Virus record (IMG/VR): IMGVR_UViG_2721755498_000001
Origin: a virus
Taxonomy: Duplodnaviria > Heunggongvirae > Uroviricota > Caudoviricetes
Strand: one strand, 5' to 3'
DNA length: 47,208 nt
Shown here: positions 42,716-43,489 of the stretch, one piece after another
Position numbering within the stretch: the stretch's first letter is position 1
Layout of the letters: every line of letters starts with the position of its first letter
Program-made: the position numbers and the translations under genes
Notes under the pieces: model-generated
Seen by the model: the letters and a program-made list of their open reading frames with translations, nothing else
Database searches by the model: none
Told to the model about the DNA's origin: nothing

Positions 42716-43489
42716 TCAAAAATTAGGTGAGTAACGGACCGGGGACATAGCTCCTTTTTTTCTTAATTCATCTGGTATTTTTTTTCCAAGATAAAGATTT
42801 GCTATTTCAGGTGGGGCTTCTCGACCTTCAAAACCATAGCGCGAACTTTGTGTTGCCTCAAAGTCAGGATCCTCGTCCCAGTATTTCAACGAAGGGAAAT
42901 TTTCACGTGTTGATTTGAGCCATTTATCAGCAATGAAAACCCCTCGAACGATCCCCCTTACAGTAGCAAGAATGATTTCTGCTTGGCTGGCGCGAGAGAC
43001 ATTAATGCGCCAGCTAAATCGAACCGCATCATAAAGCTCTGAATCCTTTGCACTTCTGTTAACGGATATCATTAATGCTTTATGATGAAATGTTATGGTT
43101 TCGGGCTGATATGTTGCTATCAACTCTTTGACATGCGCGGCGCCGAATTCATTGCTGCCAGCACCATTCATGATATTCGTTAACCCAGGGTAGGCATCAA
43201 TAAGTGCTGCTTCAACTTCGTACGCCGTCTTTTCATCAGTCATTCCGTGTCGATGGATGACATGGATAACTTCAAGTCCTGCTAACCTTATTTCTCTAAT
43301 TTGCTTTAGCTTGTTGCTCAGTAACTCGTCATCATCAGTCGCTGCCACTTCACCGCGCATATGGGCAAATACGCGGTTACCTTTGCCTTTCCCTACATAG
43401 AAGGTGCTTCCGTCCCTCGGATCAATCAATCGGTATACATACCAGCCAAGGTGTTCAATTACTCCAGAAGGAAACTCAGTAATATCCAT
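42716..43489 (-). CDS. GIY-YIG nuclease-like protein with uncharacterised C-terminal domain
   Basis: N-terminal [28 protein letters not shown] fits GIY...YIG...R..H; downstream acidic residues (EVEAAL); divergent from the cytosine methyltransferase gene. Confidence 0.55.

Follow-up and report, generated by a model that had tools for sequence, protein, structure and literature searches.

The window analysed here, a stretch of 47,208 nucleotides, contains a lambdoid prophage of about 46.4 kb integrated in ssrA and bounded by a 28-nt direct repeat, TTGGTGGAGCTGGCGGGAGTTGAACCCG, that corresponds to the ssrA 3' end. The gene under study, referred to below as CMoRE, lies at the right end of the prophage. 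The first-pass annotation had placed it between tfa and a restriction-modification (RM) pair, in a right-arm cargo region and antisense to the late/tail operon; neighbours and orientation are as described there, and the coordinates of the 257-aa ORF are exact. The features of the window on which the following sections draw are listed below.

408-435 and 46806-46833: 28-nt direct repeat bounding the prophage
514-1413, minus strand: D12-class adenine methyltransferase, between attL and int
1493-3277, minus strand: 594-aa AAA_15/AAA_21 ATPase, between attL and int
3285-4451, minus strand: integrase
42062-42646, plus strand: tfa (Caudo_TAP), convergent with CMoRE
42658-42696, both strands: hairpin between the convergent tfa and CMoRE, likely intrinsic terminator (folding)
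42716-43489, minus strand: CMoRE/PD-T4-3 coding sequence, ATG start, 257 aa plus stop (ORF list)
42719-43153, minus strand: C-terminal 5hmC/5ghmC-sensing domain, about residues 113-257, including Y127
43160-43489, minus strand: N-terminal domain with the GIYxY-YIG motif (G15-W-Y17-V-Y19 ... F30-Y31-V-G33), R39, H43, E93 and N105
43325-43336, minus strand: D52-D53-D54-E55 codons of the acidic autoinhibitory 'safety-catch' loop over the active site (from the sequence; role from PMC12923530)
43490-43690, minus strand: upstream region kept with the gene, presumed native promoter (alignment of five independent contexts)
43669-43688, plus strand: 20-nt class-II tRNA anticodon-arm remnant (anticodon CGA, Ser) at the outer edge of the CMoRE module (alignment)
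43854/43896-45329, plus strand: C5-cytosine methyltransferase (DNA_methylase and DNA_meth_N), divergent from CMoRE
45364-46578, minus strand: EcoRII-N/EcoRII-C endonuclease
46807-47169, minus strand: intact tmRNA gene (Rfam)

The predicted protein matches the PADLOC profile of the single-gene system PD-T4-3 (PDLC04031, E 7.6e-140) over its full length, with residues 1-256 aligned to positions 1-255 of the 256-position profile. A phmmer search against PDB sequences retrieves 9U75 (E 5.1e-171) and 9U7U (E 1.6e-150), both over all 257 residues. Liu et al. (Nat Commun 2026, PMC12923530) named PD-T4-3 CMoRE, and crystal structures have been determined for the proteins of E. coli O157:H7 (9U75, 9U8D) and APEC O1 (9U7U, 9U7Z). 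The window protein is colinear with the O157:H7 protein, gap-free and of equal length, with 97.3% identity (seven differences in 257 residues), and is 85.2% identical to the APEC O1 protein. According to PMC12923530, which cites the screen by Vassallo et al. 2022 (PMC9519451), PD-T4-3 was originally found in E. coli ECOR68; the main text of the original PD-T4-3 paper describes the protein solely as 'a GIY-YIG nuclease'. The gene is already known, having been named in 2022 and its mechanism and structure solved in 2026. For the window allele itself, the present analysis covers its identity, the conservation of published residues, its fold, the autonomy of the module and its genomic setting.

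General-purpose resources are less specific. In RefSeq the window protein (WP_000355482.1) is labelled 'LEM-3-like GIY-YIG domain-containing protein', PHROG 5356, which also matches it, is of 'unknown function', and an NCBIfam search gave no match. The N-terminus belongs to the Pfam family LEM-3_GIY-YIG (PF22945, E 2.2e-14, residues 28-110), which bears out the GIY-YIG core proposed earlier from the sequence; the generic GIY-YIG family PF01541 scores below threshold for this protein (E 0.074). The C-terminal part had been called unrecognisable. Pfam does find no family in these ~145 residues, whether they are searched alone or as 22 relatives, but this part has already been published as a domain sensing 5hmC and 5ghmC.

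The published functional residues (Y17, Y19, Y31, D52-E55, R80, V92, L96 and Y127) are all kept in the window protein, and the oligomer-interface residues V92/L96, R80 and the beta1-beta2 loop (D23-S28) are identical to those of the crystallised CMoRE proteins. The window protein has the same GIYxY-YIG motif, acidic loop, V92/L96, Y127 and two-domain fold as the O157:H7 and APEC O1 proteins. Two of the seven substitutions relative to O157:H7 affect the acidic loop or its immediate flank (T51 in place of A, E55 in place of D), so that the acidic run reads D52-D53-D54-E55 as against DDDD (D52-D55) in O157:H7; the other five are in the sensor domain (Q169, I172, N197, S200 and L201). In an alignment of 50 relatives, with identities as low as 53% and taken from a family with more than 6500 cluster representatives, Y17, Y19, Y31, R39, H43, E93, N105 and Y127 are invariant, as are Y153, R157, W160, W190, N197, F198, R217, F220, Y233 and Y253 in the C-terminal domain. 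The Tyr, Arg and Glu residues expected of a GIY-YIG catalytic site, for which a careful alignment had been recommended, are therefore present and invariant in these relatives. From this invariance and from what is known of the GIY-YIG family, R39 is probably the catalytic Arg and E93 the catalytic Glu; the residue numbers of the mutated Arg and Glu are given in PMC12923530 in figures only and are absent from its text. In distant relatives the acidic run is shorter.

The biochemistry of CMoRE has been described in detail. Expressed alone from its native promoter, CMoRE lowers plating of T2, T4 and T6 by about 10^5 (PMC12923530). The defence is non-abortive: carriers grow normally at MOI >1, and CMoRE cells are depleted of T4 DNA with no change in host DNA reads (PMC12923530). 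The purified enzyme requires Mg2+ or Mn2+, binds and cuts DNA containing 5hmC or glucosyl-5hmC, and neither binds nor cuts C or 5mC DNA; T4(hmC) is restricted, and T4(C) escapes (PMC12923530). Cut sites fit CN11/N9G with 2-nt 3' overhangs, and two modified cytosines are required (PMC12923530). The enzyme is a tetramer (dimer of dimers) of two-domain subunits, an architecture that depends on V92/L96 and the beta1-beta2 loop (PMC12923530). The N-terminal domain carries an extra tyrosine ('GIYxY-YIG', Y17/Y19/Y31) and a 15-residue acidic loop that covers the active site, inserted between alpha2 and alpha3 and containing four consecutive acidic residues (PMC12923530). The 4A loop mutant gains activity, accepts ordinary DNA as a substrate and is toxic; active-site mutants are dead; and neither 5hmC DNA nor 5hm-dCTP switches the enzyme onto ordinary DNA (PMC12923530). 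[quoted passage not shown] CMoRE alone protects BL21(DE3), and the strength of the native promoter varies by allele, that of APEC O1 being weak (PMC12923530). Only two systems are active in E. coli NILS69, PD-T4-3 among them, and K-12 carrying it with its native upstream sequence is protected against Tevenvirinae. A Capnocytophaga homologue, 48% identical, depends on DNA modification for its nuclease activity both in vivo and in vitro, and cuts Mu DNA as well.

With a probability of about 95%, the window gene is the anti-phage restriction nuclease CMoRE/PD-T4-3, its activity and phage range being carried over from the orthologue. The first-pass annotation had offered three options without choosing among them (a single-gene defence nuclease, a homing-type endonuclease and an accessory to the adjacent RM system), the first of which has been demonstrated experimentally for the 97%-identical protein. 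By analogy with that O157:H7 protein, the window protein would form a tetramer (dimer of dimers), in which the C-terminal domain of each subunit would bind 5-hydroxymethyl- or glucosyl-hydroxymethyl-cytosine. One dimer would read two modified cytosines about 21 bp apart (CN11/N9G), and the GIYxY-YIG nuclease, with Mg2+ or Mn2+, would then make a double-strand cut with 2-nt 3' overhangs. The acidic loop D52-E55, positioned over the active site, would exclude ordinary and 5mC DNA, so that the DNA of the host, of the prophage and of anything modified by the EcoRII-type methylase would be spared. The expected outcome is the direct, non-abortive destruction of incoming T-even-type phage genomes.

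The junction between tfa and CMoRE contains a hairpin (42658-42696) whose two strands fold at -24.9 and -23.4 kcal/mol (z -4.54 and -4.83), and none of 200 shuffles folds as well. On the minus strand, which corresponds to the CMoRE transcript, the hairpin is followed by a strong, long U-tract, UUUUUCUUUUUU; on the plus strand, for tfa, the tail is weaker, UUUAUGCUU. The bidirectional terminator proposed earlier is thus upheld as regards a hairpin on both strands and the minus-strand U-tract, and less so on the plus strand; a strict consensus terminator scan reported none at this junction. On the other side of the gene, about 200 nt 5' of the ATG are conserved with it in every context (alignment of five independent contexts), and BLAST coverage stops at query position 972-988, equivalent to window 43687-43703. 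The native promoter presumably lies within 43490-43690. A strict scan of this region found no sigma-70 promoter of consensus quality; a weak candidate (-35 TTGTGA at 43553-43548, -10 TAATAT at 43530-43525, 17-nt spacer, 8/12 score) falls below the scan threshold. No clear Shine-Dalgarno sequence was found upstream of CMoRE. For a 48-aa ORF in this region (43548-43694, minus strand), the possibility of a small partner gene was weighed and rejected. The ORF is probably non-coding: homologous regions show 1- and 2-nt indels within it, and its GTG start sits in the non-conserved junction.

At the outer edge of the module, the window keeps only the anticodon arm of a tRNA, while in strains EDL933 and SCEC020026 the fragment extends to the 3' CCA end. 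In comparison locus L002, an Rfam E-value search gives a tRNA-like match at 6934-7012 (plus strand, 27.5 bits, E 0.0024). The remnant looks like a relic att site, left by an element that formerly had CMoRE at one edge. In the window, the EcoRII-type pair begins beyond it.

CMoRE (43.7%) and the RM pair (43.6%) are poorer in G+C than the window (49.2%) or stf-tfa (52.5%), which fits imported cargo. At a threshold of at least 95% nucleotide identity, 837 of the 5426 complete E. coli genomes (~15%) carry CMoRE. The same gene in O157:H7 strain EDL933 is likewise prophage cargo placed after tail-fibre genes. There, as in SCEC020026 and TK3896, it follows the pin and tail-fibre genes of e14-like/Mu-tail-like prophages with no RM pair nearby, whereas the window copy stands beside the EcoRII-type pair at the ssrA end. 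The gene is always found in a slot for prophage cargo and keeps both the ~200 nt upstream and its own terminator, with or without the RM pair. CMoRE is thus, judged by its sequence contexts, an autonomous module, carried together with the pair in some cases.

This distribution also bears on the idea that the gene product serves the adjacent EcoRII-type RM system, as an accessory or as a third subunit, and depends on that system. CMoRE does adjoin the methylase gene in divergent orientation, and the block of CMoRE, methylase and endonuclease recurs in an unrelated dusA-integrated prophage-like record and in 243 genomes (query of gene plus RM pair, at least 80% covered). Linkage is nevertheless not obligate, which answers the earlier suggestion that co-occurrence with EcoRII-like systems be checked: about 70% of the CMoRE-bearing E. 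coli lack the adjacent pair, EDL933 and the pao-locus prophages among them, and the RM pair also occurs without CMoRE, both on chromosomes and, at ~80% identity, on plasmids. CMoRE on its own protects BL21(DE3) and K-12. A dependent role is accordingly very improbable; a better reading of the linkage is that of two complementary layers of defence, in which the EcoRII-type pair would act against unmodified CCWGG and CMoRE against the hypermodified T-even DNA that escapes EcoRII. The 5mC made by the methylase is ignored by CMoRE (PMC12923530).

Even less probable, by a small measure, is a free-standing GIY-YIG homing endonuclease of the Seg/I-TevI type that spreads by cutting alleles lacking it. 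The likeness to such enzymes is limited to the GIY-YIG core. An Rfam gathering search of the whole window returned only tmRNA and IS009, with no group I intron or other self-splicing RNA, and neither an intron nor an intein surrounds the gene; where a homing enzyme has a sequence-specific module for DNA binding, this protein has a modified-base sensor as its C-terminal domain. The homing option is rejected because of these two findings. In addition, 5hmC/5ghmC DNA is the sole substrate of the orthologue, whose sequence requirements are loose and which leaves host DNA uncut, and the window gene sits in prophage cargo next to an att site, not between conserved genes of a lytic phage. A toxin-type nuclease that acts by abortive infection, degrading all DNA once triggered, deserves equally little credence. 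Such a system could be a single nuclease gene in prophage cargo, as here, and the orthologue does become toxic once its acidic loop is removed; yet carriers of the orthologue are normal at MOI >1, with host reads unchanged and T4 DNA depleted, 5hmC DNA and 5hm-dCTP fail to activate cleavage of ordinary DNA, and the acidic loop is intact in the window protein.

Among known enzymes, CMoRE shares its catalytic fold and its Tyr/Tyr/Arg/Glu/Asn set with the type II GIY-YIG restriction enzymes Eco29kI and Hpy188I and with the catalytic domains of UvrC, I-TevI and T4 EndoII. It differs from this group in its extra Tyr (GIYxY), in the 15-residue acidic insert and in being modification-dependent, not sequence-specific. 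With PvuRts1I and AbaSI it has in common the fusion of a modified-cytosine reader to a nuclease. The PvuRts1I/AbaSI family comprises 5hmC/5ghmC-dependent type IV enzymes built from a PD-(D/E)XK-like nuclease and a SRA-like domain; AbaSI cuts at a fixed distance between two modified cytosines ~20-22 bp apart to leave 2-nt 3' overhangs, as does CMoRE. [quoted passage not shown]

The sensor domain was published as a 'distinct protein fold', with 5hmC bound at the domain edge and not in an aromatic pocket (PMC12923530). In structural comparisons it resembles, with weak scores, the YTH domains of YTHDC1 and Mmi1, the EVE domains of VcaM4I, PH1033 and THYN1 (bound to 5mC DNA), ZmASCH (ASCH) and archaeal McrB N-terminal domains; SRA domains, including those of ScoMcrA, UHRF1 and AbaSI, score lower still. 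Tentatively, and with slightly less than even odds, the CMoRE sensor could be a highly divergent PUA-like reader (EVE/YTH/ASCH). If so, the invariant aromatic residues Y153, W160, W190, F198, F220, Y233 and Y253 may make up the pocket that actually takes up a base flipped out of DNA, and the edge site seen with the free nucleotide 5hm-dCTP may not be the true base pocket. PUA-like readers also serve other type IV restriction enzymes, for example VcaM4I and archaeal McrB, and the possible relation is a modest lead.

Full-length CMoRE homologues are also encoded by virulent jumbo phages (250-285 kb), among them Moabite of Serratia (L007, 3001-3762) and OBP of Pseudomonas (L008, 2992-3750), at 37-45% identity and 97-99% coverage, and are labelled 'homing nuclease' or 'GIY-YIG endonuclease'. 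They keep Y17, Y19, Y31, R39, E93, N105, Y127, W160 and W190 and are without the four-residue acidic loop. These proteins may be weapons against competing modified-DNA phages (or against host DNA), or may be less restrained nucleases; an offensive use of the loop-less homologues, a separate proposal from that on the sensor fold, is rated just as tentatively.

From stf/tfa rightwards, many E. coli strains have prophages of essentially the same sequence as the window. The prophage of strain CFSAN064035 differs from it in stf length and in the cargo of the left end. At that end of the window, the D12-class adenine methyltransferase matches PADLOC PD-Lambda-5_B over its full length (E 1.1e-123), and the 594-aa ATPase gives PtuA/GajA/AriA-like matches. 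The sequence comparison indicates that the left end is a variable cargo slot, because CFSAN064035 has different genes there, including one for a STAS-like domain protein. Taken together, the two ends of the window prophage carry three defence modules: on the left a PD-Lambda-5-like pair, on the right CMoRE and the EcoRII-type RM pair, the last two illustrating layered defence against unmodified DNA and against hypermodified DNA that escapes RM. CMoRE is a real defence gene that is already explained and raises no new question itself; its identification is of use for annotation, the RefSeq name being generic though ~15% of complete E. coli genomes carry the gene.

The near-identical CFSAN064035 prophage (L006) also encodes a phage N6-adenine methyltransferase in the early region (11539-12192) and a 'DNA-methyltransferase' just before the lysis genes (16266-17318); conversion of these coordinates to those of the window makes them about 279 lower. 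If the window shares both, besides the EcoRII-type and PD-Lambda-5_B methylases, it would be an unusually methylase-rich prophage. The stf gene of the window (38706/38712-42062, plus strand) contains a long Ala/Ser/Thr-rich low-complexity repeat region (about residues 120-480) and exceeds the annotated stf of CFSAN064035 by 279 nt (93 codons), with downstream coordinates in exact agreement. We infer a length polymorphism of the repeat region, with a difference in start-codon annotation as the alternative. The Rfam family IS009 (RF02111) has a full-length match at 42405-42603 (plus strand, 229.5 bits) that lies wholly within tfa, in the 3' portion of its coding sequence, and this 'sRNA' family appears to have been modelled on a conserved segment of a tail-fibre-assembly gene.
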